Positions 1 through 24,619 of a stretch of 32,000 nucleotides of DNA are shown piece by piece. The DNA is from Mycoplasma mobile 163K (lineage in GTDB: Bacteria > Bacillota_I > Bacilli_A > Mycoplasmatales > Metamycoplasmataceae). The translations under genes and the position numbers were made by a program. The stretch is taken from contig NC_006908.1 of assembly GCF_000008365.1 (NCBI RefSeq), forward strand, positions 150,001 through 182,000. The letters run 5' to 3'. A model generated the notes under the pieces. It saw nothing but the letters and a program-made list of their open reading frames with translations. It had not been told where the DNA came from and did not search any database. The stretch's first letter is position 1. Every line of letters starts with the position of its first letter.

Positions 1-3000
1 TCACATTGCAAAGACCACATCCAGCATGATCTAATCCTGGTTCTATTGCAAAAATTATCCCTGATGGTTTTGGTGGATTTAATATTTTAGGTTGGAATGT
101 AGATGTTGCAAAAAATGAAATTTATAACGCAAGAACCCCTTTAAATGCCGAAAATGGGCAATTGATAATGCCCGAACTTATTAATTTAATTGATGGAGGA
201 GGTTTTGGATTTTCTTATAGATATTCACAACAAATTCTTAGAACTTTTGATTCATATTTAATTAATGTTGATGGTAATGGTGAGATAAAAAACATTAATT
301 CTAATTGAGCCAATTCTTCTTTTATAAATGAAATAACAGGAGAAACCTCTCCTATTGTAAGGGAAAATCATAATTCATTAAGAGATATTGTTTATGATGG
401 TAATGGTGGTTATTATGGGATTACTGTTTCAAATACTCTAGTTCATTTAAATAATCAAGGTAATCAATTAAGTTGAAAATCAGATATTCCTAATAATGAT
501 GTAAGTTCAAATGGATACATATCAACAAGTTCATCTGATTTACAAACGATTTTAAATAATCAGCAAAATCAAGCCACTGCTTCAATATTAAGTTTGAAAA
601 ATCAATCTTTAATTTTGGCAACAAGAAATAATGTTAGAGTATTGCCATTTAATGGAACAAGCACTTCTAACTCTACTTTAAACATTGCTTTAGCCAATAA
701 TTTTATTATTGACAATATTCAAGAAGTAGATTCTAATACTTATTTACTTTCAGGAAATAATTCTTCTTCACAAAAAATTATTTATATTTTGAGATTTGGT
801 ATAGGTGGAGCACCAATTCTATCAAATCATCACATGATCGATTCAAATTCTTTAAAATCAAATGTATTAACAGGAAAAATATATCCTAATGGTCTTTTAG
901 CAATTATGGTTGCAAACAATACAAATGGAATAACATTTTTAGATTACAATTTTAATAATAATACAATAGGATTAAACCCTACTCAAAATTTCAATACAAA
1001 TATAGTTCCAACTAATGCTCAAATTGAAAATCTTGCAATTAGTCCACAAAATGAAAGTTTAGTTGTTGCTTATAGAATAAATAACAATCTTGGATTTAGA
1101 ATTTTTGGTGCTCTTTCTAGTCGTTATAGAACAAATACTCCATATTATAGTTCAACTCCTCTTAATCTTAGTGCATCATCGATCCACCTTCCTTATATTG
1201 ATATTACACCAAATGAAGCTTCAGGCATTTTTACAAATTCAGCTTTACCATTAAAATCAATAATTTCAAATACTTTTAATCGTAGTTCAGATACTTTCAA
1301 TGCTTCAGATGCCTCAAGGGGGAATACAGCTCTTATTTATTCATTAGGACAAAATATTTATAGTTTGAATTTTAATTCTCTTGGATCAGATCAATCTAAT
1401 AATGTAACTCAGTGAGGAATTCCAGTTGAAAAAGCTTTAAGTTTTACTAAATTAACTAATGCAAATTCTCTGAGAACATCTAATTCATCTACTCTTGTAA
1501 GTAGTGATTTTAGTATTTCAGCAATTGAATCAGATGGTGTAGGAGGATACATTATTGGTGGAAATAGTCCAATTTTAATGCGTTTAGGTCTTGTTAATGG
1601 TTTTTTACAATTGATTTCATATGAAAGTTATGCAGCCGAATTTAATAATTTAATTGTAAATACTATTCACTCAGATAGACAAGGGATGTTTATTGTCTCA
1701 GGCCAAAATGGTTTAGGGGCAGCAACAATACAAATAAATAGATTACTAACAAGAGGACTAATTGATATTGATAATCCTTATGGACAAACATTTACAGGAA
1801 GACCAACCGTAGCTCAAATTACAAACTTTTGAGAATCTTATAAAAATATTACTTCTGTTAATACAATAAGCAATGGTTTAGGAGTTGTTACTTTACAAAG
1901 ACATCAAGCTTACTTATTAAATAGAAAAGCTATTAAAATTCCAAAAAATACTTCTCTTTCAATTACAGATATTTTGAGATTTAAAGGAACTATTCCAAGT
2001 GTAGGGAATCAAGTAGGATTTACAATTAATGAAACAGATCTTTGAGGTGATTTAGGAAGAGATTATTATGGTAATATTGATGTTCAATATTCATTTGTAG
2101 GTTTTACAACTAATAATCAACAAAATTGAGTAACTGGATCAGATAATTTTGTTAATTTATTTAAATTAGATGCAAATTTCAGACCTCAACCCTCAGCAGG
2201 ATTTACTTTGAACGCACAGCAAATCCAAAGTTTCAGACCTCGACATTTAATGATTAGATATGTTGTTAATAATGATAGTTTAGTTCCAGGATTTTCATCT
2301 AATAATATTGCAATTAGTACAGAAGCTCTTTCAGTTAGAGGAAATTCAGAAGTAACTAGTGCTGATATGATTAAAGATTTAACTCTAAATCATATAATTT
2401 ATTTGCAATCTAACGCAACAGGAAATTTTATTGCTGATGGCAATAGTCCATTTAGACCTACAACGTCTAATTTTTGAAATTCTTTTTTCATTGGAGAGCC
2501 AAACAATACAAATATAAATTCTTTCAGATTAGTCCCTGCAGATTTAGGTAAATCTCTAAGTAATCAAAATTTGGAAATTGTTCTTCCAAGATCAATGACT
2601 GATATCCCTTCAATTCGTAATAGAGAAGTTGAAGTAAAATTTACCAATAATATAAATCCAACACCTACTTCAATATGATATACACTTGAAGAAATAAAAA
2701 ATGGTCAATTATTCATTGATTCAAACACAAAATTGTCATGATCATTTTTTACAAGACAAGGACAACGAATTACAGCAGTAGATTCAAATAATCAACTTGG
2801 AAATGGAGTTTTTGGAAATTTACAAACAACACCTCATGAGATTAATAATGAGCAAATTATTCCAATCAATATCCCTAATTCAAGTGTAAGAGATTGAAAC
2901 ATCACTTTAGGTGGAGATACTAAAAACATTACAATTATTAATTCAAATACAAATGCTCAAGTACAAGAACATTTAGAGTTACAATATGCAATTGGATCAA

Positions 3001-6000
3001 TAAATGAAAATAATGTTTTTGTTCCTAGAATTTTTAATGGAAATATTTGATTTAAAGATACAGATTTTTCAAATGCTTTAAAAAATAATTCAATCGATAT
3101 AACTCTTGGAAACAATTTTATTTATGCAAGAGTAGTTTTAAAAAATGTGCCGAATAAAACAATAGTTGTTTCAGGAAATGAGCAAATTAACACAATAAAT
3201 CAATCAGGTATTACATTTTCATTTAATACAGGGGAAAATGGGCTTCCAATTTTAAATGGAACTCAAATTTTTGATGGGCAAAATTTTACCCCAGTTTCAA
3301 ATGCAAAAGGTCTTGTAAAAATTTTCTACAATGCAACTCGTGATTTTGAAACTTTAAAATCAACAAGTGTTATAGTAGGTGGTTCTGATTCAAAAAATTT
3401 ATCAATTAATTTTGGTCAATTATCTTTAAGTTCATTAAGATCAAGTGGAATAGATGTTCAATTCTCAATCAATAATGGAACAACTTGAGAATCATATTTA
3501 GTTGAAGGACAACTTATTGATGCTTCTGTTTCTAATGATCCTACTAAAGTTTCTTTAAGATTATTTCCAAGAAATAATTTTGCTACAGAAATTAGCACTC
3601 AAGCTCTTGTAGTTAAAAATGTTCAAGCTAGAATTTTAATTAGTGGACTAAATATTAATAACTTAAGAGATGCAAACCTTGTAAATTTAAGTGGAAACAC
3701 AAGAGATTTAGCTATCAATGTTGATCAAAACGTTTATAGAGGTGCCACCGGAAATTCAACAACTCCAATTACAAATATTGTTCAGGTACGTTTTGCTATT
3801 AATGGAGTTTTAGGTGGAACATTTTTTGAAAAAGATGAATTCTTAAGAGAATTAAGAAGTTTACCTCGTTCAATTTTAAATGCAATTAGACCAGGCGATT
3901 TTAGAGTTAGTTTTATTCTTTTAAATAATGAAGATTTTTCACTAGAAGAAGGATTATCAACTCCGCAAATCCCAAATATTACGAATGTTAAGCGTTTAGT
4001 TGATTTATTTGATCATGTTAATTTAGCTAATGGTAGTTCAATTGTATCTTCAGGATCAACATCTAGATTAAGTCTTTCTAATCCGAATTCTTTACTTTCT
4101 GAAACTACATTAACTCAATTGGGAATTGTTCTTGAATACGGTTCATATAGATATAGAGCAAATGGCGATAAAATTGATGTTAATTATGTATGAGAAACAA
4201 TAATTCCAACAGCTATTAGTTCAGCTACTCCTGATAGAACAAATCAGAATTTCAATTTTGCTCCAAATATTAATTCAAATGCTTTTTCTTTGGCATTTAG
4301 ATTTAAAATAATCGATGAAAACACTACTATTATTGTCAATGGGAATAGTAATATTGTAAATCCTGGAGTAGATGGAGATTTAGGATTTTCAATTAATACA
4401 AATTCTTTAACTAAGGATATTATTTTTGGTACAACAACAACATCTAATTTTATAAACCCAAATGATTTACAAAAAATAGTTTTAACTGGAACTACATTAA
4501 ATATAAATCAACTTATTTCTCATAGTGAAAATAATCTATTAAATTCAATTATACAAACAGATATTAGAAATGTTCTAAGAGTAGAATATTCTTTTGATAG
4601 TTCAAATTTTTATGATTTTGAAACATTCAAAAAAGAAGCAAATGAACACCAAAAAAATAATGAGAATTGATCTTTAGAATATAAAAATATACTTTTACCA
4701 AACGGAACCAGAACAGATATTCAAGGTTTTGGAAATATTAAAAAGATTTTTGTAAAATTTGAAGTAAAACCAGAACATAGATCTCAATTCACAATACCTC
4801 AAAATCAATCTAGAGAAGCAAACATTTCAGGTTTAACAAATGGCACACACATTTTAGGAAATGCATTACAATCTTCATATGATATTTCTAAATGATTGAA
4901 TATTTTGAATACAACTCCAATTACAGTTGCTCCAGGTTCAACTTCTGATAATGTTTCAGGATTAGTATTACCTACTCCAATAGAAGGTTTAAGTGTTCAA
5001 GATGCAATTAACCAATTAAGTCAAAGAGGATATATTGTAGAATTTAATGCTCCAAGCGGACAAAATCCAGCTCTTTGAGTTACAAATTTAAATTTAATTA
5101 CTTCTGTAGGGAATAGTCGTATTATTCGTGTAAGAGTAGTTCCAATAGGATTTAGACAAGGTACTGCAGTTGCTGGTAATTTGACAACTGGAGAAATTTC
5201 AAATGGTTATACAAATATAATAAGACCAAATTATATAAATACAACAAATCCTTATTCATTTAATGATGGAATTGATGTAAGAGTTAGTGTACCAACAACA
5301 CTTACAATTTCCAATCCAAGTATTGCTTTATTAAATGAAATTAAACCTTCTGGAAATACAAATCAAATAATTTTAGCAAGCCAAAATAATATTGATGCAA
5401 TTAGAAATAGTCTACTAGCAAATGGGATTATTTTAAATATTCCAGGTGTAGCAAGTGGAACTGTTGAACTTCAATATGCGATTGGTAATCAAGGTGCAAC
5501 AGATTTAGGAACTGAAAGTACTCATTTAAGACAACTAACAAATTCAAGAACTTCAAGATGATATAATGCTGCTGATTTTTCAAAATTTTTAAAAGAATTT
5601 GTAAATCAAAATGCTTTAAATGCTATTTTAGGAAATAATTTGAATATTTATGTTCGTTATGGCCTAACCTCTTCTCCTGCTTTAGGAGTAGAGGGACAAA
5701 TAGAAGGTCTTTTAACAGATAATGAAAATCAATTGAATCAATTTAGAGTTCAAAATCCAAGTCCTACTTTATTAACTTCGACCACTCAAGGGTTCATTAA
5801 TGTAGATCGAATAATTTCTGATATTTCTGCTGCTAATGCACTTTCATTTAATAATGCAAATCCAAATATTCTTTCAAATTCAATTTTCAAGATTGATTTA
5901 CCTCTTTCTTTAACCGAAGAAGGAATCAATGATGTTTCACAATTTTTAAGAACTAACAACTTAGCACTTGAATTTAGTGTAGGTCAAAATGCAGGTTTAG

Positions 6001-9000
6001 ATTTTGCAGAGTGAATTAATTTAGACCAATTTAATGCTGTTCCTTCAACAACTGTAAATTTTGGGAATCCTCCTAGATTGGTTTTTAGAATTAGAAATAC
6101 AAACCCCACATCTTTTGTTATTTATTCTCAAACTTCTATGACTAATTCATTAGTTTCTGTAAATATTGAAGCAAAATTAGATAATATAAATGTGAGTTTA
6201 AATTTAAGTTCTGCAGATATTAATAGAGTTCAATTTAGTGGAACAACTTCAAATTTAGTGATTAATGATGAATCTGCAACAAGTAATTTTTATGTTGCAA
6301 ATGGAGATGTTGAGCTTCAATATTCATTAGTAAAAAGAGCAAATGGTATTGACTTAGCTTTTGCAATTCCAGGTCAAAACTCACTTTGATTAAATAAAAA
6401 TACATTTAGTAATTCTTTAGCAAGATGAATTCCTACAACTTTTAATGCAACAACAGGAATTCCAATTTTAGATAATGTATTTACATTAAATTTAAACTAC
6501 AATGCAGCTAATTTCCAAGAAGATACTTTCAAAATAGTTGCAAGATATGTAATCACAACTCAAGGATTGACAAAAAGATTAAGTTTCACTCCTGATTTTA
6601 GAAATCCAACTAGATTAAACGAATCAAATATAGTTAATATAAATATTTCTAATTGATCAACAGTTAAAACTATAATTAATTTAAGTTCTTTAGTAAATTA
6701 TTTATCAAGACAAAATACAATTATTAATTTTGGGAATTCAATTGATTCTTCAAATATTACAAGTATTATTTTACCTGATCCTTTAAACCAAAATCCTAGC
6801 TCAATCACAAGTAGAACCTTAGTAAGATTCTTAACTAATAATGGCTTTGAAATTAAGTATGCATTTGGTAATAATGCTAATCTAGTTATTGCAAATTACA
6901 CTACTAATTGAAATTCCAATTTTCAAGCAAATCCAATTTCTTTATTAAGAACTAATGGAACTTCTGTTTTAGGGATTTTATTGAATTCGACAAATAGTAA
7001 TTTTGAAATTATTAATTCTGCTAATAATCCTACAACCACCCCAATTCTTAAAGAAGGTAATTCAATTAATATTCCTACTTTAATTAATCTTCCAAATTTA
7101 GAAATAGAAGCTTCAAGAATCATTTTTAATGCAAATGATTCACAACCACTAAGCTCTAGATTTTTAACAATTGATGATTCAAGTCTATTAGGATTAATTA
7201 GAAATAATGATAATTTTCCAAACAATGAACAAGTAATATTAGAATACTCAAATGGGTCATCATTATTACCAAATAGTTCAGAAATTTGATTCTCAAAAGA
7301 AAACTTTATTAGAAATCTTGCCCAAAACAGACCATCTTCTTTAATAACACCAAATAGAATTTTTGTAAGGTATGGTTTAATCGATAGAACTTCAAATAGT
7401 TTTAGAGTACCAACTTTTAATTCTCGTTTAACAATTGATCCAAATTCAGATTTAATTGATGGAGTATTTATTCCTAATTCAACCAATTTAAAAAGTCATG
7501 TTGATTTATCTATTCAATTAAGTGCTTTAACATCAGGAACTAGAGGAGGAGCAATTACTTTTCCAAATGGAGCAACAACAGCACGTTTAGGAAATGCTAC
7601 TTTAACTGGAGATATTAGTTTTGGAGGAATAATTTCACCTCTGTCTGCTTTAGGGATTCAATTGCAATTTTCAGCAGATAATACAACTTGATTCACTTAT
7701 GACCCAAATAATTTTCAACCACAATCTTTAATCCCAAACAATACTTTGTTTGCAAGATTTAATCTTACAACTGCCAATGCAACAAATAATTTTGTTTTAT
7801 CAAGTGAAGAATTTGTTAATGTAGAAATTGCTTCAACAGTAAAACTAGCACTAATTTTAGATGCTAATTTACTAACAAATATTAATTTAAGTGGGAACAA
7901 TAAATTTATAAACATTGATGGATCAGATATTTTAAATCCAAATAGTTCTTTTAATGTTCAACTTCAAACTATATTAGACAATGCAAATTCATCTTTATTA
8001 AAATGAGGAATTCAAAATATTGGAGATTTATCAGTACAATTTTCTTCTACATTTTCAAGTAGTGCAAATTTAGGGCCAAATAATTGATTAACTAAAGAAA
8101 ATTTTATTAGAGAATTTGCAAATAATTTGGGGACTTTTACTGAAGCTCCAATTAATTTAGAAATTAGAGCTAGATATTTCTTTACAAATCCTTTAAATAT
8201 CAATTTAGCAACAGCATCATCAAATCTAGAAACAAGTATCGGGAATACTATAGTTGCTTTAACAGATTTAAGCAATCGTTCAATACGTGCAATAAATTCA
8301 AGTAGTAATATAAAAATTTTTATTAATACTAATGAATTTATTGAAGCATTAAGAAATGGACAAACAAGATTCGAACTAGGTTCAACATCTTCAAATATTA
8401 GAGGTGTTCCAATTCTTCCGAATAATTTTAACAATGAAATATTGAATCTTTTATCTTCAAGATATGGAATCATTGCTCAATTCGGAACCTCAAATTCTTC
8501 AGCTGAAATTCCTATTGTTTGATCTAATAGTTTAATTAGTTCATTACAAACAGACATAAATAATAAGCCTATTTTATGAATGCGTTTTGTAGCAGAAAAT
8601 GTAAAAGGTATTGTTCCAACTGTTGAAGAACCAATTACAACTCAAGTACATGTAGGTACTTTTGGTACACCAATTTTATTACAACCAATAATTCCTATTT
8701 CTGTCGAAACAAATAGCGCCCATTTAAGATTTGTTAGAATTACAGGGAATACAAAAAACATTAACATAAACATCAATGAAGCACTAGCGCTTGCTCCTGC
8801 TCTTTCAAGAGATAAATTAACTGTAGAATTTTCAATTGGAGGAAATCCTTCTAATATTGCAAATAATAAAGTTGTAGAATTGATTCCTGGTCAAATTTGA
8901 TACAAACATAGAGAATTTGAAGCAGCTTTAGCAAATTATCCTAAAAATATCTTACATGGTAATTTAATTTACATGAGATGAGCATTTTCTGGCAATCAAA

Positions 9001-12000
9001 ACAATGAAGGAGAACAAATTTTAGATTCAAGTTCAATTTTATATGTTCCTTCTATTGACAATGGTAATTCAAGTTTTGCAGTATTTGCAGATATTACAAA
9101 ATACTTTGAACAGCTGCAAAATATTACTTTAGGTGGAACAACTAATTCTCCATTTTTTGCAAATGTTCCATCATTACTACAAGCAAATCCTGAATTATTT
9201 GAAAATATTCCAAATGATCCAGTTGATTTCTTGTTCCCTGGCTTAGAATTAGAATTTTCTCAATTTGCAGAAGGTCCATGACAAAAAACACCTTTATCTT
9301 CAATTGTTCTTACAAATAATTATTTTGTAAGATTAGTTTCAAATAGTATAGTTAGAATTAATTATGTATTTTCTTTTTCGCCTACTTCAGATATTGTAAC
9401 ATTTACAAGTCCAGTTAAATTAGACACAACAAATGTTAAAACAATTGTAAATGTTCCTCCGGTTACACAATTACAAAATATTGCTAATATTTCATTCAGT
9501 GGCACATTAAATAATTTAATAATTACTGAGAACATTAATGAAATTAGATCATTGATTGAAAATCTAAATCCTATAAATAAAAATTTAGCAAATAACATTG
9601 TAATTCAATATTCATATTTTGAAAATCCTACAAGTAATCAATGATTCAACAAGGAAAATTTCATCAATGAATTAAGTAGATTAAAAGGAAGAGTTTCTGA
9701 AAGTGAATTCATTATTTTAAAAAGTCAAATCAAAATTAAATATGCAATTAATAATTCATCATTTATTGTTGGTATGAATGACTCGCCTATTGATGATTTG
9801 CAATCACAAACAAATATTTCTTTAATACAACAAAATAGTTTCAGTGGATTAATTAATTTAGATTCATCACCACTATCATTATTTAAAAAAGTGATATTAT
9901 CAGGAACTCACAATAATTATTCTCTAAATTTTGATGGCCTTTCTAGAGAAGCAATGAAAAGTATCTTAGATAGATATACTTCAATTTCACTTCAAACTCC
10001 TTTTAGTATTTATATTACAAATACTGCTGGAGAAGGAATCCCTTCATTTGAAGAAGGAAGATTAATTTATAGATCTAATAATCCTTTAGTTCTTGAAAAC
10101 ATAACAAATTTTCCTCTTGATTTAGGAAATACAATCCCTGAAGAATTGCCTTTATTCATTCGTTTTGTTCCGAATCCAACTAGTGCTGATGTTGCAAATA
10201 CATATAGAATTTTAAATGAAGGAAATTTATTGGATGTAAATCAAGGAATCCAATTTAGAATTAAAGTTTCTGTAGATCCAATTAATCCATTTAGAATCGA
10301 TTTAAAAAGTGTTGTAGATACAATTTTCGCAAATCAATTATCAAATTTTGCTTCTCAAATAGTTGCAAATCCAAATGAAACATTTACAATTCAAGGTAAT
10401 TCAACTTTAGCATTAACTAATGGTGGATCAATAATTAGTAATCCAAAAGAATTCTTTAATGAATTGGATTTAAATGATGCTGAATTTTTAGCATTCCAAT
10501 ATTTTGTTTCAAACTCAAGATTAAGCCCTCAAGAAATTGCTAATTTAAGATTAAGCACTTCAAGTTCATTTTTTACTCAAGAAATTCCTTCAAATTTAAA
10601 ATCAGGTCAATTTGTTTATATAAGAGTAGGAATTGATCAAAATAATCCAAAAGCAAATTCTTTAGAAGTTTCAAATTCATCTATTATTACTGAAGTCTTA
10701 GTTACAAATTTAGCAATTGACTTAGTAAGATCTCCATTAAATTGAGATTTTGTAGATTTTGAAAATGTTACAGGAACTATTCCGTTTAGCGGGACATCAT
10801 TTATAAATAATTTAATATTAAATGTTGATCAAAATGAAAACTTTAGAGGTGTTGGAATAAGAATTTTTAACAATTTTACTTATTTAACAAATACAGGACA
10901 AGAAGTAATTTTTACAAATTCAAATCCACCAACACAAGATGTTTTAAATACATTGTTGAAAATCAATGGAGCTTTTGTTGTAAAAACTCAAATCGGAATC
11001 CCTTCTAATGGTGACAAAGAATTAAAACTCATTAATGATCAAGGATCAGAAGCAGGAATTACTTATTGAGTAAATTCTCAAGGTGTGCCACTTCCTCCAT
11101 TGCAAAGAGCAATTAATGTAAATGAAGATTTATTTTTCCAACTTACAAGAAATCCAGATGGTCAAATTAGTTTTGCTCAAAATAGATCATTGGCAAATTT
11201 TGAACTATTTAATATTTATGCAGAAGCAACTATTTCATATCAATTTATAGCTTTAGATGGATTTAGTGGCTTTATTAATACTGAAAATACAACAATTTTA
11301 GATCTTTTATCTCAAATTCAAGAATTCAAAGTTCCAAGCGGTGAAATTAAAAATCAAATAAATGGAATTTCACAATTCGAAGTTTTAATGCCTCAAATTG
11401 TTCATAGCACATCTCCTTTAAATTTACCTCCTATTAGTGGAATTTCAACTTTTGCAAATTTAGTTGTTAATAGAAATGGTGTGCAAATAGACTCGAATAA
11501 TTTAATTAATAATTTATCTCAAAATCTTTTAAGCATTGAAATAATTCTTACAAAAACAATAAATGGAGAACAAAAACAAACAATTTTTAGTGTCCAAAAT
11601 GGAAGAATTGATTTTCCAACAAATCTTGAAAATGGTGATTTAGTAACAATTCAAATAATCCCATTGAATTCAAATTTCTTTGCTATTAGTTATTTAGAAA
11701 AACCTAATTTAAGAGAAACTTTCACAATTTCAGGTCTTGAAGTTGATCCAGGATTAGAAGCATTTAAATTCTTAAGAACTGGTTTCAACATCAATAACAA
11801 TTCTCCTGTAAGTGGAAGAGGAAGTTTTGAAGTTTTATCAAATGATCCTCAAGATCCATTCAATGCTCTTAAAGATCCTGTTAATAGAAATTCAAATTTA
11901 CAATGAAATTATTCAATTTTTAGACCAAAAGCTAATCAAGATGGAACTTTTGGTCCTGAATATGAAGTTATTAGTTTCGAAAGAAATGAAAAACCGATTT

Positions 12001-12665
12001 CATTAAAAAATGGAGATATTGTTCAATGAATACTTGCTTTAAAGAACAATGAAAATGGCGGAATTATTACAACAACATATAATAATGCTATTGCAAGTCC
12101 TTTTGGAACTCCTCAAGTTTCAAAATTAAGAATAGATAAACCAGGCCTATTTTTTACAAGATTAATAAATGGAGTCCCAAGAAGAATTGATTTAACTGAA
12201 GGATTTTTAGTTTCAGGATTAAAAGAATCTTTAAGTATTCCTAATGATTTTAATTTAAATGCTATTTCAATTTCTTTTATAGGACAAAATCAAATAGGAT
12301 CTTTTGAAGCAAATACATCTAATTTAAATATTCCAGAAAAAACAATTATTACGTATTTCAAAAGAGGCGAAAATGGAGAAGAAATTCAAATTTTCCCAAA
12401 TTCAACATCTACTAATTTATCAAATGGAGAAACTATTATAATTAGATTGCAATTAGATCCACAATTTAATAATGATTTTGCTTTAGATGTACCTTCAGGA
12501 GCAATTATTGAAATAAATCAAATTGTTTCAGGTTTAATTGAACAATCAAATCCTGGAGCACAAATTGCAATTATTACAGCAGCTTCAGTTGCAACAATTC
12601 TTACTCTAGGTTTAGGTGTTTTATCACTAATAATTATTAGAAGAAGAAAATTAAAAGGAAAATAA
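1..12665 (+). CDS. gli521: Giant surface protein, 5'-partial (4,220 codons in window), Gli521-type gliding-machinery protein with C-terminal membrane anchor
   Basis: All 16 large + strand fragments from 594 to 12665 are in the same frame (start divisible by 3). Each fragment ends at TGA. Hand translation of 3-600 and 6387-6981 shows only TGA interruptions. TAA stop at 12663-12665. The only hydrophobic helix sits at the extreme C-terminus. Size and synteny with a 356-aa downstream gene match my recollection of M. mobile gli521-p42. Confidence 0.8.
2043..9690 (+). repeat. Protein-level tandem array of about 19-20 divergent modules (about 120-180 aa each) inside the giant ORF
   Basis: The recurring order is phi-[SGT]-G-[NT]-T-x-x-phi-x-I (e.g. 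LSGNTRDLAINV, ITGNTKNININI, FSGTTSNLVIND), then phi-[EQ]-[YF]-[SA] (VELQYA, VELQYS, LRVEYS, LALEFS, LTVEFS, IDVQFS), then a UGA-encoded Trp. The Trp is often followed by [FYL]-x-K-E-N-F-I (WFSKENFIRNL at 7287, WLTKENFIREF at 8085, WFNKENFINEL at 9642). Confidence 0.65.
12564..12638 (+). other. C-terminal transmembrane anchor of the giant protein, followed by the basic tail RRRKLKGK
   Basis: IAIITAASVATILTLGLGVLSLIII is an uninterrupted hydrophobic stretch. It is followed by 8 mostly basic residues and then the stop codon. Confidence 0.8.
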
Positions 12666-12668
12666 AAT

Positions 12669-13739
12669 ATGACAAAAAATTGAAATTTCGAAAATAAGGA
12701 AAATTATTATCCAAATATTGTTCTTTTTCATTTAGGTGATGATGAAACTTTACAAGCTTATGACTTAGATGCAGAAATAAAAGAATATATTAAATATTCA
12801 AGAATTGGTTCAAACAATACTGATGAAGCTTTAATGCAAAAAGGAATAAATGAACTTTTTTTAACATGATTAAAAAAAGATAAAAAAGTTTTAAATTCAA
12901 AAAAGTTTTTTAAACTTAATTCAGATAAACTAAAAGATTACTTGAAAGAAGTTGATATTTCAATTATTATTTCAAAATCCAATGACATTGCTCAAATAAA
13001 TTATTTGACGGCTTTAAATCAATTTATTTTTAAACCTTTAGATATCTTAAGTTTTAATTTTGTATTGAGGACTTCTAATCATAGTAAAAAATCTGAAAAA
13101 GTCCTTAACAGTTCAATAAAACTTTTAAAAAAGCAAACTAGATCTCAAATGATTATTATTGAGGAAAGAGACATTTTAGCATCATTTCAAAATCTGAAAA
13201 TTAGTAATTTAAAAGAATTTATTTCAAAAAATTTCATTAAACTTGTAGATTCTTTAATAAGCCCATTTTTAAGAGTAGTAGAGAATCCTTATTTATTTAA
13301 AAAGTTAAAATATCAAATTTTCACAAATGAAATAAATTCAAATCTTATTTTATCATCTCTAGCAATAAGTAGAAAAACAGAAAACAGGTTAGAGGATTCA
13401 TTAAGAAAAGTTCTTATAAACCCAATCTTTAAATCATCTTTTGAATATTCAAAATTGTTATTAGTTAACATTAAAGGTATTTTTTTAGAAGATAAACATA
13501 AAGAAAAAATTGAAAATAGATTAAAAGAAATTTTAGGGCATGAAAAAGAAATTATTGTAACTTATTTCGATGATAGATATGCAATGGATAGATACACTCA
13601 AATTTCTATTTTTGCATTTTTTGTTGAAAAAACAGGACATACCAACAAAACCACTCAATTGCAAAATAATTTGCTAAATTCTAAAGAAGAATATCAAACA
13701 ATTGTTAATAACTTGACAGAAGAAATTCTTCTAAGATAA
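12669..13739 (+). CDS. p42: P42-like protein (356 aa) translationally coupled to the giant gene; C-terminal half resembles the FtsZ C-terminal domain
   Basis: ATG at 12669 lies 3 nt after the upstream TAA. Two in-frame TGA codons (12681, 12867) join it to track ORF 12942-13739. Its size and position match P42 of the M. mobile gliding operon (from memory). YSKLLLVNIKG...IIVTYFDD...ISIFAFFVE resembles FtsZ G(A)xGVLVNItGG...IIxGxxxD...vtViATG. Confidence 0.7.
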
Positions 13740-13769
13740 AAAAAGTGATAGTTATCTATCACTTTTTTT
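13740..13769. terminator. Bidirectional rho-independent terminator between p42 and the convergent minus-strand cassette
   Basis: Perfect 11-bp stem aaaagtgatag (13741-13751) / ctatcactttt (13756-13766) with loop ttat. It is flanked by an A-run on one side and a T-run on the other. The stop codon of the minus-strand 90-aa ORF lies in the loop. Confidence 0.75.
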
Positions 13770-14024
13770 ATTAAATTTAAAATGCTCATTATAATTATTC
13801 ACAAAATTTTCAAATAAATTGTAAATATTTATGTAAACATTGTCTTCTATTTCGACATTTTTTTCTTTTATTTCGAGATATTTATCACCATTCATTTTTG
13901 TGATTTTAACTAAGAAATTTATGATTTCTTCTTCATTTAATATATCGTCCTTACCTATTTCTATGCTTTCAGACAAATATTTTATGGTATAAATATCTTT
14001 ATTATTTATTAATATTTCTAACAT
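13752..14024 (-). CDS. Small acidic cytoplasmic protein (90 aa), last gene of the 2-TM cassette, unknown function
   Basis: Intact ORF with a strong SD (GAAGGAGAATT-ATG on the minus strand at 14025-14038). No TM segment. Glu/Asp/Asn/Ile rich. Confidence 0.6.
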   Translation of the reverse strand: MLEILINNKDIYTIKYLSESIEIGKDDILNEEEIINFLVKITKMNGDKYLEIKEKNVEIEDNVYINIYNLFENFVNNYNEHFKFNKKSDR

Positions 14025-14078
14025 AATTCTCCTTCAAATTTAAATAACTTAAAAAAAGAATTTTTGTAAAAACTATTA

Positions 14079-14537
14079 TTATTTCCGAATTGCTTCATCA
14101 ATTTTTTCGAATAATTTTAAAAATTGAATATCATCTTTTGCATATTTAGTTTGTGACTTTTTAAATTCGTCCATTTCTTCATTGATCATTTTTATTCTAT
14201 CATTTAAATCTTTATGAAGGTTTTTAAATTCAAAAAAAGCATTCAAACTACTAAAAAATGCAATTGAACCTGTTATAAAGGCAATTGCTATGAAAAAAGG
14301 TCTTGATAACTGATTATTATTAAGTCTAATTGCAAACAAATTTAGTACAACTAACATAGAACTAATTGCAAAAATAGCAATATTTAAAGTTAGAAAAATA
14401 CCATAGCCAACAACATATCTTTTTTTAAAAGTTTTGTATTGCTCTTTTATTTGATTAATTAATTCTTTTCTTGAATATTGACCAATGTCATTTGTTAAAA
14501 AATTTCTAAATTCTTCTTCTTTTTTTCTATGTCTCAT
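14079..14537 (-). CDS. 2-TM membrane protein, SLATT/DUF4231-like, paralog 3 of 3 (152 aa)
   Basis: Basic N-terminal helix (QIKEQYKTFKKRY), two TM helices (VVGYGIFLTLNIAIFAISSMLVVLNLFAI; PFFIAIAFITGSIAFFSSLNAFF), then a charged helical tail (FKNLHKDLNDRIKMINEEMDEFKKSQTKY). Its ATG lies 1 nt after the upstream stop. Confidence 0.7.
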   Translation of the reverse strand: MRHRKKEEEFRNFLTNDIGQYSRKELINQIKEQYKTFKKRYVVGYGIFLTLNIAIFAISSMLVVLNLFAIRLNNNQLSRPFFIAIAFITGSIAFFSSLNAFFEFKNLHKDLNDRIKMINEEMDEFKKSQTKYAKDDIQFLKLFEKIDEAIRK

Positions 14538-14538
14538 T

Positions 14539-15051
14539 TTATATTTCCTTATTAATTTTTATGATTTCTAAAGATTTTTCATATTCTCTTAATCTATTTG
14601 CTTGTTCAAGGATCAAACATACAGTTTCAAATAAAATAATTTCATTTTCTTTAGTATTTTTTGTATATTTACCTGCTCTTAATTCAAATTCCATTTTTTC
14701 AAATTTTAATTGCTTATGAATTTTTCAATTTTTTTTATATGTATCTTTTACAACAAAAAAATTGACAATGCTTGATAAAAATGCACTAACACTAGAAATT
14801 ATTGAGTTTGTAAAAACAAACACATTACTTGGTCCTCCTGCAGGATCTTGGAATGCTAATTTAGCAATATTTAATGTACTTATAATTACAACATTAAATG
14901 TCAATGCAATTATAATAAAATTCAACAAGTAATATAAAAATCTAAAAGAAGAGTAGATTCGAAAGGTTTTGCTTATGTATTTTTTAGTAAATGACCTTAC
15001 ATCTTCTTTTGAAGATAAAATTTTTGATTCTTTATTAGATTGATTAATCAT
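14539..15051 (-). CDS. 2-TM membrane protein, SLATT/DUF4231-like, paralog 2 of 3 (170 aa from ATG 15051; alternative ATGs at 15057 and 15072)
   Basis: Track ORF 14725-15072 ends at TGA. Hand translation continues ...KKNWKIHKQLKFEKMEFELRAGKYTKNTKENEIILFETVCLILEQANRLREYEKSLEIIKINKEI to TAA at 14539-14541. GAGGA lies 5 nt upstream of ATG 15051. Two TM helices are present. Confidence 0.65.
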
Positions 15052-15592
15052 CTTCATCCTCTGAACTTTCATTAATAAAAATCGATTTTAAAACTTTCAA
15101 TGTTTTTGCATTTTTTGGTTTTTTCAAATATATATCATTAATATTTTCAAGTAAAATAGTAATTTTTTCGTAATTATAATTTTCAATATCCATTTTAGAT
15201 TTTATTAAAAGATATTCCAATTCTTGATAAGCTTTTTTAAATTTTTGAAATCTAGATTTAGATTTATAAATTGCTAATACAGTTAACAATATAAATAGAA
15301 AAATTGTAAAAAATACAACTAATGCCGATAAAATAAGTTCCAAACTATTTCCAATATTTGAATCATTTAGAATTACCCCTAATGTAAAAGATGCAAGACC
15401 AAGCAAAACAATGTTTAATAAAAAAATTAGCGTTGAAGTTAAAATCCAAATCAAATGGTTAGCTTTTGATTTAAAATTCAAATTATTTAAGAAAATATCT
15501 ACTTGGTTTTGAATTTTATAAAATTTTTCCTCATTAGAGTCAAGTAAAATAGTCCTTATTATGTTTTTGTTTTTACTAGATTTATCTTTCAT
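15044..15592 (-). CDS. 2-TM membrane protein, SLATT/DUF4231-like, paralog 1 of 3 (182 aa), acidic C-terminal tail SSEDEDD
   Basis: Intact ORF, with an upstream in-frame TAA at 15608-15610. TM helices are LIWILTSTLIFLLNIVLLGLASFTLGVIL and LELILSALVVFFTIFLFILLTVLAIY. The post-TM segment is KSKSRFQKFKKAYQELEYLL. Confidence 0.7.
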   Translation of the reverse strand: MKDKSSKNKNIIRTILLDSNEEKFYKIQNQVDIFLNNLNFKSKANHLIWILTSTLIFLLNIVLLGLASFTLGVILNDSNIGNSLELILSALVVFFTIFLFILLTVLAIYKSKSRFQKFKKAYQELEYLLIKSKMDIENYNYEKITILLENINDIYLKKPKNAKTLKVLKSIFINESSEDEDD

Positions 15593-15682
15593 ATATAATC
15601 AATTATTTTACCAAATTTAAAAGTTTTATTAAATATAAAAAATCAAATTTCATATTCTTAAAAATTAATATTTAAATTAATA

Positions 15683-15688
15683 TATAAT
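15683..15688 (+). promoter_or_regulatory. -10 box TATAAT, 7 nt upstream of ATG 15696 (probable leaderless transcript)
   Basis: The sequence is tataatgtttattATGaaa. No SD is present. The same module occurs at hrcA and argS. Confidence 0.4.
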
Positions 15689-15695
15689 GTTTATT

Positions 15696-16874
15696 ATGAA
15701 AATATTTAAATTTTTAAAAGCCACATCAATTTTTCTATGGATTTCTATTTTTGGATTAATAAGCACTTTTGTTGGAACAATTCTTTATTGATTTTATCTT
15801 TTTCCAACAACTGGACTTAATGTATTTTTATTTAACATTACAAGACCTTTTCCGGATGTAATGTCTTCAATTTTGTTTATTGTTTTTTTTACTTTTTTCT
15901 TGAATTTATTCATTTTAAGTTCTATGTTTTTAGTTGGTTCAATTGATTTTTTCAGAAAAAACTTATTAAATCCTAATAACATTAATTTTAGATATTGAAC
16001 TTTTATTTTTCCTTGAGTATTTAAAAAATTAAAAAGATCTTATTTAATGAGAAATTATTTATTTATAAAGGATTCATTAGAAAGTAAAGATAGAATTGAT
16101 TTTACTTACAAAAATAATAATAATTCTGATTTACCTTTTAGTGATGAAGAGCTTATTTTCAATGAAAATAAAAATCAATCTTATGTTGTGGAACCAATTG
16201 AATATGTGAATGAAGATGAACAAATCTTTAGAACAAATAATGTAAATACTTTTTTTGAAAATAATCAATCAAACACTAACACTTTAGAGTCAAATTATGA
16301 AGATGCATTTTACCAAGATGATTTAGTGGAACCTCAATCATTTAATCAAAATTGAAGAACACAAACATTTAACACAAATCAATTTGAAAATACAAATTCT
16401 TTTAATACAAATACCCAACAAGAAGACACATATTCATATTTATATGCTCAGCCAAATCCTGATGCAGCTACTCAAAGTTTTGGGACTGAATATATGGATA
16501 CATTTGCTAAAAATCAAGAATATAGAAATTATTATGCAAATAACCAAAATCAAAATGTTTCCAACAAAAACACACAGTTTATTTGAAAACATCCAAATTT
16601 GATAAAAGCAAAAAATACAAATACAAACACAATTCCTAAAATTCATGAAATTTATAAAGGGTTTCCTCCTCAAGGTCTTCAAACTAATAACTTTAATCCT
16701 TTTGTTAATCCAAAAACAGGTCAAAGAATTTCTCATCCTTTTTACTCTGATCAAAGAACAAAACAAATGATGATTCAAAAGCAATTGTATACACTAGAAT
16801 TTATGTATAAATCAGGACAAATAAGTCCCTCTGATTACTATGTAAAAAGAAATCAAATTACTAATTTAAAATAG
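15696..16874 (+). CDS. Membrane protein (392 aa): N-terminal TM helices, long N/Q/E-rich low-complexity linker, C-terminal SHOCT-like motif
   Basis: ATG 15696 is in frame with track ORFs 16047-16355 and 16599-16874 through TGA codons at 15789, 15996, 16014, 16353 and 16584. The stop is TAG at 16872. The C-terminus LYTLEFMYKSGQISPSDYYVKRNQITNL resembles the SHOCT consensus (L..L...G.Is.eEy..kk..l). Confidence 0.65.
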
Positions 16875-16900
16875 CTCTTAGCTATTTTTTCTTTTTTTAT
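16868..16900 (+). terminator. Rho-independent terminator
   Basis: Stem aaaatagct / agctatttt with loop ctt, followed by a T-rich run (ttttttcttttttt). Confidence 0.6.
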
Positions 16901-16912
16901 TTTTAGATAATT

Positions 16913-16918
16913 TATAAT
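16913..16918 (+). promoter_or_regulatory. -10 box TATAAT, 6 nt upstream of the hrcA ATG (probable leaderless transcript)
   Basis: The sequence is tataatgtgtatATGaaa, with no SD. Confidence 0.4.
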
Positions 16919-16924
16919 GTGTAT

Positions 16925-17917
16925 ATGAAAGAAAAACGTGATGAAATTTTATTAAAAATAATAGATTTATATATAAAAAGTGGGCAACCTGTTAGTAGCA
17001 AACAATTGATTTCAGAATATAAATTAGCTGTTTCTAGTGCAACAATAAGAAATATCATGGCAGATTTAGAAAATGAAGGTTTTTTGGAAAAAACTCATAC
17101 TTCTAGTGGCAGAATTCCTTCTATTTCTGGATATAAATTTTTTGCTGAACATTCTAAATCAAAAACCAATGAACTACTAGAAAGTAAATTAAAAGAAATT
17201 TTTTCAAAAAGATATCTTTCGATAGACGTTACTCTTGATGAAGCTGCAAAAGCAATTAATGAAATAATAGGACTTACCTTGGTTACATCTTCAAATGTAA
17301 ATACAGAAGTATTAAAATCAATTCAACTTATAGAATTAAACAATTATTCAGCAACAATAATTCTTGTTACATCAACTGGTCAAGTTGCAAATAAAACAAT
17401 TGATTTAACTAATTTCCAAGACATAAAATTAGAAGATGTAAGAATAGCAATTAGATTATTTAAAGAAAGACTTATTAACACATCTTTAATTAACTTAAGA
17501 GAAAAAGCTCTTGCTTTGAAACCTATTTTGTCTAAATACATTAAAAATTACGAGACAATTTTGCAATCCTTTATTGGAAATGTTTTTGAATTTGAAAACA
17601 AAAACCATGTTTATGGGAAATCAAATATAATAAAACAAGAAGGAATCGATCGATTACATTTAACTCAAATTTTAGATTTAATTGAAAATAATAGTATTTG
17701 AAATATGATAGAAAGCAAAGTAGAAGAAGATGAAACTTTAAAAATTGATGTTAGAAATAGCAACATAAGTTTGATTTCCAAAAAAATTTTTGTTAATAAT
17801 ACTACAAAAGAAATTTCAGTAATTGGTTCAAATAGAATGGATTATATAAGCGCTAAATCTGCTATAGCTCTTTTGGAAAGTTTCATAAAACCAAAATTTT
17901 CTAAAAAAAACAATTAA
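16925..17917 (+). CDS. hrcA: Heat-inducible transcription repressor HrcA (330 aa)
   Basis: The N-terminal winged-helix segment LLKIIDLYIKSGQPVSSKQLI...SSATIRNIMADLENEGFLEKTHTSSGRIPS is classic HrcA. One in-frame TGA (17699) joins the two track fragments. Confidence 0.9.
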
Positions 17918-17938
17918 TATTTATTTATAATTAAACTT

Positions 17939-18850
17939 ATGAAAGAAAGACAAACAGATTTTTTTAATTTTGGAGACAAAATAACATTTGATTATACAGC
18001 AAAAGTTACTAAAGATAATTTAGAATGAAGTAAAAAAAATATTTTTCTCACTTTAGGAGAAAATACTTTTTTACCAAATTTTGATTTTCATTTTTTAACT
18101 ATACCTTTTAGTGATAAGTTGATAATCAATTATAAATTTAGTGATTTTTATTTTGATAAAAAATTATCTGGTAAGGAAGTAGAATTTTCAATTCAAATTC
18201 AAAAAAGAGAAGCGAGTTCAGATAAAAATTTACAAAGTAAAAATCTAATTATTGATGCTATCAATGTTCAAAGAGATTTTTCAGAAAAAAATAAATCAAG
18301 TGATAATTTAGAAATTTTAAATAAACAAATTGAAGATAAAAATGATTTAATAATTAATTTAGAAAAAAAAGTTTTTGATTTAACTCTTGAGAACAAAAAA
18401 AACATTGATGATTTTAATGAAAAAGCAAAATCTTTTGCAAAAAAAGCACAAGAAGAATTGGATAAATATAAACTAGAATTAAAATCATTTTTGGAAAATG
18501 AATTTGAAGAGAAGAAAAAATTTTCATTTCAAAAATTATTTGAAAATATTATAAATCCTTTAAATAATTTTAGATTGGCAATTGATGCTGGTTCAAAACA
18601 GGAAAATTCTTCCATTAAGTCATATGTGCAAGGTTTTGAAATGCTTTTAAATCAAACAATAAATATTTTAGAATCTTATGGACTAATAATTATAAGACCA
18701 GAAATAGGAGACACCTTTAACCCTGAAGTTCACAATGCAGTTGAATTAAGAGAAGAAGGAACACCAAATAGAATTTTGAAAATTAACTCACTAGGCTATC
18801 AATTTCATGAAAGAGTTTTAAAACCAGCTTCAGTTATTGTTTCGAAATAA
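17939..18850 (+). CDS. grpE: GrpE nucleotide-exchange factor with an N-terminal, roughly 90-aa trigger-factor-type FKBP-like domain (303 aa)
   Basis: The C-terminus NPLNNFRLAID...GFEMLLNQ...ILESYGL...GDTFNPEVHNAV...GYQFHERVLKPASVIV is GrpE. ATG 17939 is in frame with track ORF 18119 through TGA 18026, with no other stop. Confidence 0.85.
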
Positions 18851-18853
18851 AAA

Positions 18854-18880
18854 TTAGCACTTTTTTATATAGAGTGCTAA
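18854..18880 (+). promoter_or_regulatory. CIRCE operator (HrcA binding site)
   Basis: TTAGCACTT-N9-GAGTGCTAA compared with the consensus TTAGCACTC-N9-GAGTGCTAA, a single mismatch. Confidence 0.9.
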
Positions 18881-18885
18881 TTTTT

Positions 18886-18894
18886 TGTTATAAT
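18886..18894 (+). promoter_or_regulatory. Extended -10 promoter element (TGtTATAAT) for dnaK
   Basis: The element lies immediately downstream of CIRCE. An SD-like GAAAGGA lies 7 nt before ATG 18947. Confidence 0.55.
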
Positions 18895-18904
18895 GATCAT
18901 ATAA

Positions 18905-20752
<1,848 letters not shown>

Positions 20753-20774
20753 TAATCAAAATATTATTTTAAAT

Positions 20775-20808
20775 AAAACAAGACTTATTAAGTCTTGTTT
20801 TATTTTTT
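20775..20808 (+). terminator. Rho-independent terminator after dnaK
   Basis: 12-bp perfect stem aaaacaagactt / aagtcttgtttt with loop att, followed by attttttg. Confidence 0.8.
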
Positions 20809-20827
20809 GAAAAGTTTAAAAAAATTA

Positions 20828-20833
20828 TATAAT
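20828..20833 (+). promoter_or_regulatory. -10 box TATAAT, 8 nt upstream of ATG 20842
   Basis: The sequence is tataattacttgttATG, with no SD. Confidence 0.35.
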
Positions 20834-20841
20834 TACTTGTT

Positions 20842-22458
20842 ATGAAAAAAAATATACAAATTTTACAAAAGAAAATCGGTTTTTGATCTGCTTTAGCTGT
20901 TCTTGTGGGTTCAGTAGTCGGAATAGGAATTTTCTTTAGAAATGGTTCTGTTGCAACAGCAGTTGAATATAATGGAGTAGGATGATTACTTGCTTGAATT
21001 TTAGGAGCGATTATTGCTTTGTTTACAGCAATTTCTTATAGTGAAATTGGCTCTATAATTTCAAAAAAAAGATTTTCAGGTCTTTCGTATTGGGCTACAA
21101 AATTTGGAGGAAGTAAATTTGGTTATTTTGTAAGGTTTAATTTTTCTTTTTTTAACTTGCCTATTATTATTGTAGTTTTAGGTTTTTTTATAAGTGAATT
21201 CTTTTTTTTATTTTTATCTTGATCAGGAGTACCGGGTATAAGTTTAACTTCTAATCCGAATGCTTTAACAACACCTATTTACATTCACGTTTTATTCGGT
21301 ACTTTTTTATCTATTTTGTACATTGTAATTAATAAAATTTCTTTAAAAATTGTTGCAATTCATCAAAATATTGTTACAGTATTGAAATTTGCTCCAATTA
21401 TTTTAGCAATAATTATAGGTTTAGTTTTTGCAAATAAAGCTGGAAATAGTTTTCCTACAAATCCTTCTGAAGCAGGAAATGCTTTCCAAAATTCTAATTT
21501 TAATTTTGGAAATGTCTTGAAATCTTTACCATCTGTTTTATTTGCTTTTGATGCTTTTTTAATTGTTGGATCTCTTTCGAATAAAGTAAAAGGAGGATCA
21601 AAAACAATTTCAAAAGTAGTTATAATTGGAATGATCTTTTCAGCGATTATTTATATTTTACTAACAATAGCTTCAATTTTACATAATGCAAAAAGCATAG
21701 GAGATTTAATTACTAGTGCTATTTCAAATGATGCTGCAAAAGCAATAAATATCTTTTTATTTTTGTTTATTTTTATTTCAGGAATTGGTGTAGTGAATGG
21801 AATAACTTCAGCCTATGTTACTGAAATGGAAAACGGTTCTTATTTGCAAACTTGATTTGGAGCTAAATTTTTAGTTAAAAAAATTGGAAATTATTGAACA
21901 GGAGTGGCATTTACGGCTATATCTTATGTTTTTTGATGATTAATTTTTGTAATACCTGCTTTGATAATGAATTCAGATGAATTATTTGATGCAGCAACTA
22001 ATTTTGTAACAATATTTTTCTTTGGAATTTATGCAATAATAGTTCTACTTTATCTTTTAAAAAGAAAAGAATATGATTCGACTAAAAAAGTTAATAAATA
22101 TTTATTTTACATTGCTTCATGAACTTCAATTATAGGAATTACAATTACTGTTTTCGCACAATATGTTGTAGGAATTCAAGATGCAATTGAACTTGGTTCT
22201 AATTCTGCAGGTTTAGGTGTTTTTGTTAAAACCAATTCCATTAAGAACATTGATTATATAATTATGAATTTTATTTTTTTATCTATTTTTTTTCTTCTAC
22301 CAACAATAAATTTTTTCTTAATAAAATTTTTTGAAAAAAGAAATGCTTTTATAATACAAAAAGAAGAATTTGAAAATTCAGAAATTTTTATTGCAAATAA
22401 TGAAGAAAATAATCAGCTAAAAAGTAAGAAAAAATTCTTTTTTATTAAAAATAAATAA
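20842..22458 (+). CDS. APC-superfamily amino acid permease, paralog 1 (538 aa)
   Basis: Polytopic membrane protein with the N-terminal motif VGSVVGIGIFF. Four track fragments in one frame are joined by TGA codons, including a tandem TGA-TGA at 21934-21939. Confidence 0.7.
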
Positions 22459-22490
22459 GATTTTAAATTTAAACGAAAGGTATTTAAGAA

Positions 22491-23990
22491 ATGATCAAAA
22501 AAATTGGGTTTTTTACAGCTTTAACTATCCTTGTTGGAACAATGGTAGGAATAGGAATATTTTTTAAAAATAATTCAATTTCTACTATTGTTAAGGGTAA
22601 TGGAATTGCGTGATTAATTTCGTGAATTTTAGGAGCAATTATTGCAATTTTTACAGCGCTATCTTATGTTGAAATTAGCACTGCTAAACCTAAAGAAAAA
22701 TCAGGAGGACTTTCTTATTGAGCATCAATTTTTTCTGGAAAAAAATTAGCTTATTTAACAAGATTTAACTTAGCATTTTTTTATTACCCAATTTTTGTCG
22801 TTGTCCTTGGTATTTTCGCAAGTCAAATTTTTTTCCAATTTTTAAATTTAATCGCACCAAACAGATTTGAAAATATTAGTGTTTGAATTCATGTTATTTT
22901 CGGAATTTCTATTTCCATGATTTATTTTATTTTAAATAAAATTTCAATTTGAATTGCTGGAATTCATCAAAATATTGTAACTATTTTAAAGTTTATTCCT
23001 CTTTTTGTCGCAATTATTGTTGGGTTGATATTTGCAAATACTAATAATATTGGTGGATCAAATGCATTTAATCAAGGTGCATTTGATTTTTCAAGAGCTT
23101 TATTTGCAATTCCTTCTGTTTTATTTACTTTAGATGCTTTTTTAATTGTAGCAACAATTACTCACAAAGTAAAAGGAGGAGAAAAAACTGTTACAAAAGT
23201 AGTTTTAATTGGAATGGTTTTTGTTTCAATAATTTATATTCTAGTAACAATTGCTTCAATTTTGCACAATTCAGGAACTGTAGAAAAACTTATTCAAAAT
23301 TCTTTGGCCATTGGATTTAGTAATGGAATTGCAATTTTTGTCAATTTCTTTATTTTTATTTCTGCTTTAGGTGTAATAAATGGAATGTTTACAGGTTTTA
23401 TTGGAGAAACTGAAAATTCAACATATTCTTTTACATGATTTGGGTCAAAAATTCTTACAAAAAAATTTGGACCAAAAAAAGCAATGTCATTTTTTTATTT
23501 ATTTTCTTATTCATTTTGATCGTTAATAATTTTTATTCCAGCTATTACTTTAAATTCTGATTCAATAATTGAAACAATTAGTAATTTTCCAACATTATTT
23601 TTTTTCTTGGTTTATGGACTTGTAATTTTTTTCTATGCAATAAAAAGACACAAAACAACCGAAACAAAAAAAATAAATTCTGTTCTTTTTTACTTTATTA
23701 GTATTTTTTCAATGATAGGAATTGTAGTGGCGATTTTTTCACAATTTATTGTTTTAATAATCGATGCTTCAACTTTACCTAATATTGAAGGAGCTTTTGG
23801 GACTATTGGTATCAAGTTAACAAATTTACAATTAATGATCACAACTATCATTTTTATTATTTTATTTTTCTTATTACCTTACATTAATTTTTTACTAATT
23901 AAATACTTTGAAGAAAATTTGCAAAAGAAATCTACAATTAAAACAACAAAAATGGATAAATCAAAAAAAACTTTACAAGAGAATTTTTAA
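22491..23990 (+). CDS. APC-superfamily amino acid permease, paralog 2 (499 aa)
   Basis: Clearly paralogous to the upstream gene: PSVLFxxDAFLIVxxxxxKVKGGxKTxxKVVxIGMxFxxIIYILxTIASILHN is shared. SD-like GAAAGG precedes the ATG. Confidence 0.7.
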
Positions 23991-23992
23991 AT

Positions 23993-24580: not shown

Positions 24581-24590
24581 ATTTCTCCAT

Positions 24591-24619
24591 TTGTCAAAAT
24601 AATAGTTTTTAAGTAAAAT
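24591..24619 (+). promoter_or_regulatory. Sigma-A type promoter for galU (TTGTCA-17 nt-TAAAAT)
   Basis: The -35 box TTGTCA is at 24591-24596, the spacer is 17 nt, and the -10 box TAAAAT is at 24614-24619. Confidence 0.45.

Follow-up and report, generated by a model that had tools for sequence, protein, structure and literature searches.

The 32,000-nucleotide stretch of DNA analysed here (the window) opens inside a giant open reading frame (ORF) on the plus strand, directly followed by a gene for a 356-residue protein. The giant ORF is almost certainly the 3' 89% of the gene gli521 (MMOB1040) from the fish pathogen Mycoplasma mobile, strain 163K or one identical in sequence, read with the Mollicutes code, and the gene behind it is p42/gli42, the last gene of the gliding operon gli123-gli349-gli521-p42. 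An initial annotation, made from the sequence alone, had proposed a Gli521-type gliding protein of about 4,700 amino acids (aa), and this was borne out by an exact match to the 4,727-aa Gli521 of M. mobile and by scores above the cut-off of the family profile NF045860. The two genes lie as follows:

Positions 3..12665, plus strand: 3' 89% of gli521 (MMOB1040), codons 508-4727 and the TAA stop (ORF in translation table 4, exact identity to AAT27590.1/WP_011264624.1, NF045860 matches).
Positions 12669..13739, plus strand: p42/gli42 (MMOB1050), 356 aa (NF045859 match, exact match to AAT27591.1/WP_011264625.1, junction sequence).

Under table 4, frame +3 stays open from nucleotide (nt) 3 to nt 12662 and comprises 4,220 sense codons. 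It ends with a TAA at 12663-12665 and has no left boundary, as it crosses the left edge of the window. The initial annotation had described these codons as free of TAA and TAG from partial translation; full translation showed 37 TGA (Trp) codons, a single TGG, no TAG and TAA in the terminal position only. The other two plus-strand frames hold 699 and 708 TAA/TAG stops per ~10,666 codons (~6.6%), so that chance cannot account for 4,220 codons without a stop. G+C content of the window is 25.7%. The idea that the frame is a pseudogene or a chance open frame, in which the standard bacterial code would read 37 TGA codons as stops, is already refuted: although table 11 splits it into 38 pieces (the longest of 366 codons), a TGA:TGG ratio of 37:1 at 25.7% G+C is the signature of the Mollicutes code, the TGA positions coincide with conserved Trp columns of the internal modules described below, and the table-4 product has been isolated and characterised experimentally (PMC7052211; bioRxiv 10.1101/2022.09.07.507039).

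The window translation is 100% identical to residues 508-4727 of AAT27590.1/WP_011264624.1 (4,727 aa; also BAC23069.1), which carries the public name gliding machinery surface structure protein Gli521 [[Mycoplasma] mobile] (NCBI, UniRef). A phmmer/HMMER scan of 1.84 billion representative proteins (E<=0.001) was performed with the TGA-free segment window:9645-10742 as query (366 aa of the hook, ORF residues 3215-3580), and a single real match was obtained, the 4,727-aa protein, 100% identical at residues 3722-4087. A second protein returned by the scan (2,239 aa, 27% identity in 13 short stretches) was rejected as spurious, being an unrelated repeat-rich surface protein of Firmicutes type. For the NCBIfam profiles, cut-offs of 2200 bits for NF045860 glide_Gli521 (4534 positions), 280 bits for NF045859 glide_P42 and 1750 bits for NF045861 glide_Gli349 were applied. 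The four quarters of the ORF scored 1392, 1327, 1281 and 1335 bits against NF045860 (sum 5,335) and were colinear over profile positions 478-4534 of 4534, while full-length Gli521 scored 6047 bits over positions 1-4534.

The Gli521 of M. mobile has been described as a protein of 4,727 aa with mutations mapped at S859, P1461 and E1670 (PMC7052211). From its length an offset of 507 residues (4727-4220) is predicted for the window ORF, and with it ORF residues 352, 954 and 1163 are indeed S, P and E; among all offsets between 300 and 800, 507 is the sole one that fits the three sites together. The 4,727-aa protein also has P476, in its part upstream of the window. Compared with the Gli521 of M. 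mobile 163K no difference was found: the sequence is the same over 4,220 residues, as are the stop codon, the downstream p42 and the upstream gli349.

Orthologs of gli349-gli521 are present in M. pulmonis, in M. agassizii and also in M. testudineum (PMC7052211), and the DnaK encoded in the window is only 72-74% identical to that of the best genomes covered (M. agassizii, Ca. M. mahonii, M. todarodis). Both observations would be compatible with an ortholog from another gliding mycoplasma of the Hominis group, namely M. pulmonis (MYPU_2120-2140), M. agassizii or M. testudineum. This is nevertheless extremely improbable and, at the level of sequence, already refuted by the exact match, as the 100% identity over 4,220 residues is to a protein named Gli521 of M. 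mobile, P42 is likewise an exact match, and S859 fits although this position is 'totally diverse' among the four species (PMC7052211). MYPU_2120-2140 of M. pulmonis, WP_084232748 of M. agassizii and WP_094254639 of M. testudineum belong to the same family and share the gli349-gli521 adjacency (PMC7052211), but are divergent in sequence, and among the representative proteins scanned with the 366-aa hook fragment only that of M. mobile itself was a real match at E<=0.001. When species-representative genomes were scanned with the N-terminal 1,055 aa of the ORF, no locus was confirmed, and among the best relatives by DnaK (<=74% identity) none had gli521 or p42 beside hrcA-grpE-dnaK.

The sequence to the left of the window was obtained from Logan contig L082 (SRR29904084), which overlaps the window by 18,987 bases without a single difference, window position 1 corresponding to contig position 11520. 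The extension that the initial annotation had called for is thereby supplied: the contig holds the 507 missing codons, the whole of gli349 and the end of a further gene. Consecutively and on one strand it carries a 1,128-aa gene (3' end only), a 3,183-aa gene, the 4,727-aa gene and the 356-aa gene. The 5' 1,521 nt of gli521 that lie left of the window comprise the first 507 codons, for the leader peptide and the greater part of the oval domain, in which P476 lies, and the prediction that the ORF enters from the left and belongs to a larger protein thus holds, with a total of 4,727 aa. The 3,183-aa product reached 4228 bits against NF045861 glide_Gli349 and carries S2770 and Q1257 at the published Gli349 sites (PMC7052211). 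For the first gene, the 101-residue tail present on the contig gave no NCBIfam match; it is assigned as gli123 by length and position only, the published length of Gli123 being 1,128 aa (bioRxiv 10.1101/2022.09.07.507039). The operon order gli123-gli349-gli521-p42, which the initial annotation had named, is confirmed on this contig, gli123 again by its length and position.

p42 begins with an ATG at 12669, only 3 nt behind the stop of gli521, and ends with a TAA at 13737-13739. The 356-aa product scored 419 bits against NF045859 glide_P42 (profile positions 1-349 of 365) and is exactly AAT27591.1/WP_011264625.1, gliding machinery protein P42 [[Mycoplasma] mobile]; it does not differ from P42/Gli42 of M. 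mobile (MMOB1050) in its 356 aa or in its position 3 nt downstream of gli521. The 3-nt junction had been taken in the initial annotation as a mark of gli521-p42, rightly so in view of the start at 12669 and the exact P42 match. An AAGGA lies within the end of gli521, 11 nt upstream of the p42 ATG, and together with the short gap this suggests that translation of p42 is coupled to that of gli521. No terminator-like hairpin was found 3' of p42. P42 was reported as a nucleoside triphosphatase by Ohtani and Miyata in 2007. It has been described as co-translated with the surface proteins, its localisation being 'not clarified' (PMC7052211).

In the metagenome-assembled genome CO.B2.metabat-bins.275 of an uncultured Mycoplasma sp., the minus strand of stretch L011 (L011:10-882) encodes a protein homologous to P42, with 27% identity over 295 aa (E 1.6e-26). 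It adjoins ORFs that by eye resemble trxB, rpoC and rpoB, lies ~9 kb from dnaK, and has no detectable Gli521-like sequence near it in the 11.5 kb covered. P42-like proteins may thus exist outside the known gliding operon.

In the 4,727 aa of full-length Gli521, a leader at the N-terminus is followed by a long ectodomain and one transmembrane (TM) helix at the C-terminus. In the window ORF, the only Kyte-Doolittle 19-residue window above 1.6 was found at residues 4184-4212. The initial annotation had noted one TM-like helix, 8 residues from the C-terminus, as the only one; this is correct for the ORF within the window but not for the full protein, in which a second hydrophobic segment (residues 8-27, upstream of the window) accompanies the one at residues 4691-4719. 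Between the N-terminal leader and the C-terminal helix, ~4,650 residues follow without any further hydrophobic helix. By the positive-inside rule, the basic tail behind the helix would be cytoplasmic and everything else outside. The earlier description of a tail-anchored and almost wholly extracellular protein agrees with the published scheme, in which mature Gli521 begins at residue 44 and consists of oval, rod, hook and C-terminal TM helix (PMC7052211). PMC7052211 cites domain limits that had been determined by limited proteolysis. They were mapped to the window with the offset of 507, and together with the published mutation sites and the C-terminal elements they give the following map:

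Positions 3..626, plus strand: C-terminal part of domain I (oval), published residues 44-715 (limits from PMC7052211).
Positions 627-1145, plus strand: hinge (limits from PMC7052211).
Positions 1056..1058, plus strand: codon S859, site of the published S859R gliding mutation (PMC7052211).
Positions 1146..7586, plus strand: domain II (rod), published residues 889-3035 (limits from PMC7052211).
Positions 2862..2864, plus strand: codon P1461, site of the m27 mutation P1461L (PMC7052211).
Positions 3489..3491, plus strand: codon E1670, site of the m9 mutation (PMC7052211).
Positions 7587-8210, plus strand: hinge (limits from PMC7052211).
Positions 8211..12161, plus strand: domain III (hook), published residues 3244-4560 (limits from PMC7052211).
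Positions 12198..12467, plus strand: conserved flexible region (limits from PMC7052211).
Positions 12558..12638, plus strand: C-terminal transmembrane helix AQIAIITAASVATILTLGLGVLSLIII, ORF residues 4186-4212, Gli521 residues 4693-4719 (Kyte-Doolittle scan).
Positions 12639..12662, plus strand: basic tail RRRKLKGK, 8 residues, directly before the stop (sequence).

The composition of the ORF had been called rich in Asn, Ser, Thr and Ile, and the counts agree (N 13.4%, I 10.3%, S 10.0%, L 9.7%, T 7.5%). Cys, of which none had been seen in the fragments read, is indeed missing from all 4,220 residues of the ORF and from all 4,727 of the full-length protein. This feature loses much of its force because the whole genome region is poor in Cys: the 19 genes to the right of gli521 (window 12669-31737) encode 7 Cys in 6,004 residues (0.117%), a rate at which ~4.9 would be expected in 4,220 residues and zero would occur with a probability of ~0.007. 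A Cys-free Gli521 is thus unusual rather than extreme, and only moderately exceptional for this region. On the minus strand antisense to gli521 (window 2402-12703), many long table-4 open frames were seen, with a maximum of 412 codons at 7700-8935; the gene calls of the identical Logan contig include none in this region, and the frames most likely arise from the bias of gli521 towards AT-rich codons.

Within the ectodomain, a motif of the form h-x-h-[EQ]-[YF]-[SA] recurs along the ORF in a motif scan and leads to a possible modular organisation of the rod and of the hook in its first part:

Positions 1962..10802, plus strand: ~21 divergent tandem modules of 95-170 aa, ORF residues 654-3600, Gli521 residues 1161-4107 (motif scan, alignment, leave-one-out tests, AlphaFold2 model).

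The conserved elements h-x-h-S-G-N-T, h-x-h-[EQ]-[YF]-S, W-x(3-5)-F and h-x-h-R-[YF] follow in this order. In the alignment of the 21 modules, whose identity to the reference copy is 12-24%, conservation falls on the columns G, [EQ][YF]S, W, F and R, and the Trp is nearly always encoded by TGA. A self-BLAST of the ORF revealed no internal repeats at E<=0.01; the modules are visible with motif and profile methods only. Leave-one-out profiles built only from the region downstream of the selecting motif detected 4 of the 15 copies left out (E<1e-3). With whole modules, 14 of 21 left-out copies scored better than all 100 of their own shuffles, a test that is partly circular since the boundaries were set by eye. 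The module profile found nothing in Gli349, nor in the N- and C-terminal parts of Gli521.

The module at residues 3157-3290 was modelled with AlphaFold2, using the 21 modules as alignment. A mean predicted local distance difference test score (pLDDT) of 68.5 was obtained, with values of ~70-89 over residues 1-99 and a predicted template modelling score of 0.60. The topology predicted, with moderate confidence of the model, is β-β-α-α-β-α-α-β. Foldseek returned no convincing match of this model in the PDB (best E 0.24), and single-sequence AlphaFold2 of hook residues 3722-4087 gave no usable model (pLDDT 33.6).

Repeats have been described for Gli349, Gli123 and the Mvsps; in the part of the literature covered, none were found described for Gli521. 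The proteins Gli349, Gli123 and Mvsp, with ~100-aa repeats of the Lipoprotein_17 type (PF04200), resemble Gli521 as giant, membrane-anchored surface proteins of the same organism and operon that are rich in Asn, Ser, Thr and Ile and built of many divergent tandem modules, the latter putative in Gli521. Gli349 and Gli123 show PF04200, if weakly and in precomputed Pfam matches, whereas Gli521 has no Pfam match at all, and the anchor of Gli521 is C-terminal while that of Gli349 is an N-terminal TM helix (PMC7052211). It is quite possible, though we would stop just short of calling it probable, that Gli521 residues ~1161-4107 form a chain of ~21 very divergent copies of one α/β module with a core of ~95 residues. 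Such a module would be confined to Gli521, would have no sequence relationship to the Lipoprotein_17 repeats of Gli349/Gli123 and would find no recognisable counterpart among solved structures. This modular description of the rod is a lead and not a finding, and may be the sole new element at this locus.

Gli521 has been described as a fairly rigid molecule of 120 nm with an N-terminal globule (oval), a rod and a C-terminal hook (PMC7052211, bioRxiv 10.1101/2022.09.07.507039). It sits at the cell neck and is required for binding and gliding (PMC7052211, PMC6935860, bioRxiv 10.1101/2022.09.07.507039). In the leg/twin-motor model it is proposed to act as a 'crank' (PMC6935860, PMC11864180). According to such a mechanism, the internal chains of the F1-like ATPase twin motors would hydrolyse ATP, and the resulting force would be transmitted across the membrane to Gli521; as the crank, Gli521 would pull on the Gli349 leg, whose foot would catch and release sialylated oligosaccharides. 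With only ~8 cytoplasmic residues in Gli521, coupling to the motor would have to run either through the membrane-embedded part of the Gli521 helix or by way of other membrane proteins, and not through a cytoplasmic domain of Gli521. MMOB1610 and MMOB1650 have been suggested as possible couplers (PMC11864180, Sci Adv 2025).

Alternatively, Gli521 might be mainly a static scaffold or anchor that positions and holds Gli349 instead of a moving crank. The localisation hierarchy Gli123 -> Gli521 -> Gli349 shows a scaffolding role (bioRxiv 10.1101/2022.09.07.507039), the 8-residue cytoplasmic part offers no obvious handle for an internal motor, and the rod, with its ~21 similar modules, would resemble many passive stalk proteins in its build. 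However, point mutations in Gli521 and antibodies against it alter binding and gliding speed (PMC7052211), and with the P476R mutation in gli521 binding becomes tighter while the cells remain able to glide (PMC6935860, PMC11864180). Both observations speak for a role beyond passive anchoring. We regard a mainly static role as unlikely, and the scaffold and crank roles are not mutually exclusive.

Nothing was found that speaks against the identity of the ORF as gli521. For the reading as a whole, including the proposed crank, several points have to be placed on the other side of the balance. No Pfam family was matched at E<=0.01 by any quarter of Gli521, and a sequence search of the PDB returned neither a relative nor a solved structure for the Gli521 quarters or P42. 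The strain identity derives from protein identity and a Logan assembly contig. The crank role comes from the literature alone and remains a model, and PMC11864180 itself calls the transduction of force across the membrane unknown.

To the right of the operon, minus-strand genes for small membrane proteins are followed by genes for an Asn/Gln-rich membrane protein, hrcA, grpE, dnaK and two amino-acid permeases. The same side holds genes for a nucleotidyltransferase (Pfam NTP_transferase), a G3P_acyltransf-family protein, a GTPase and two SpoU-type methyltransferases, and in addition a HAD hydrolase gene, an RNase HII-family gene, a gene for tRNA-His and argS. The small genes at window 13752-15592 (minus strand) number three, possibly four; they stand back to back with overlapping ends and converge on the gliding operon. 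Their translated products of 152, 177 and 182 aa all have hydrophobic stretches; the middle gene belongs to DUF4231 (75 bits), and the others gave sub-threshold matches only (DUF6056, MpPF26). The possible fourth, a 90-aa ORF at 13752-14024, is called in the Logan contig only. The Asn/Gln-rich protein (window 15687-16874, plus strand; 395 aa) has a hydrophobic N-terminal third followed by a long Asn/Gln-rich part, and matched no Pfam family. GrpE (window 17939-18850, plus strand; 303 aa) carries its GrpE domain at residues 151-303, behind an N-terminal extension of 150 residues without family match. The permeases are tandem paralogs (window 20842-23990, plus strand) of 538 and 499 aa (PF00324/PF13520) with 9 and 7 TGA-Trp codons. 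A single tRNA-His (GUG) gene at window 29977-30052 (minus strand), between the RNase HII-family gene and argS, is the sole Rfam/ARAGORN match in the window.

Taken together, the literature has covered the gene, the operon, the domain scheme and the proposed role since 2005, and the locus itself holds nothing new. The 8-residue tail, predicted to be cytoplasmic, constrains how an internal motor can couple to Gli521. If the modular organisation of the rod is true, the module would provide a structural parts list for the 'crank', and at ~5 nm per module the chain would roughly account for the 120-nm molecule; a description in modular repeats could also help to model a 521-kDa protein that has no structure. 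Few bacterial machines for surface motility have no relation to flagella or pili; Gli521 is a core component of one of them, and its correct recognition matters for annotation.

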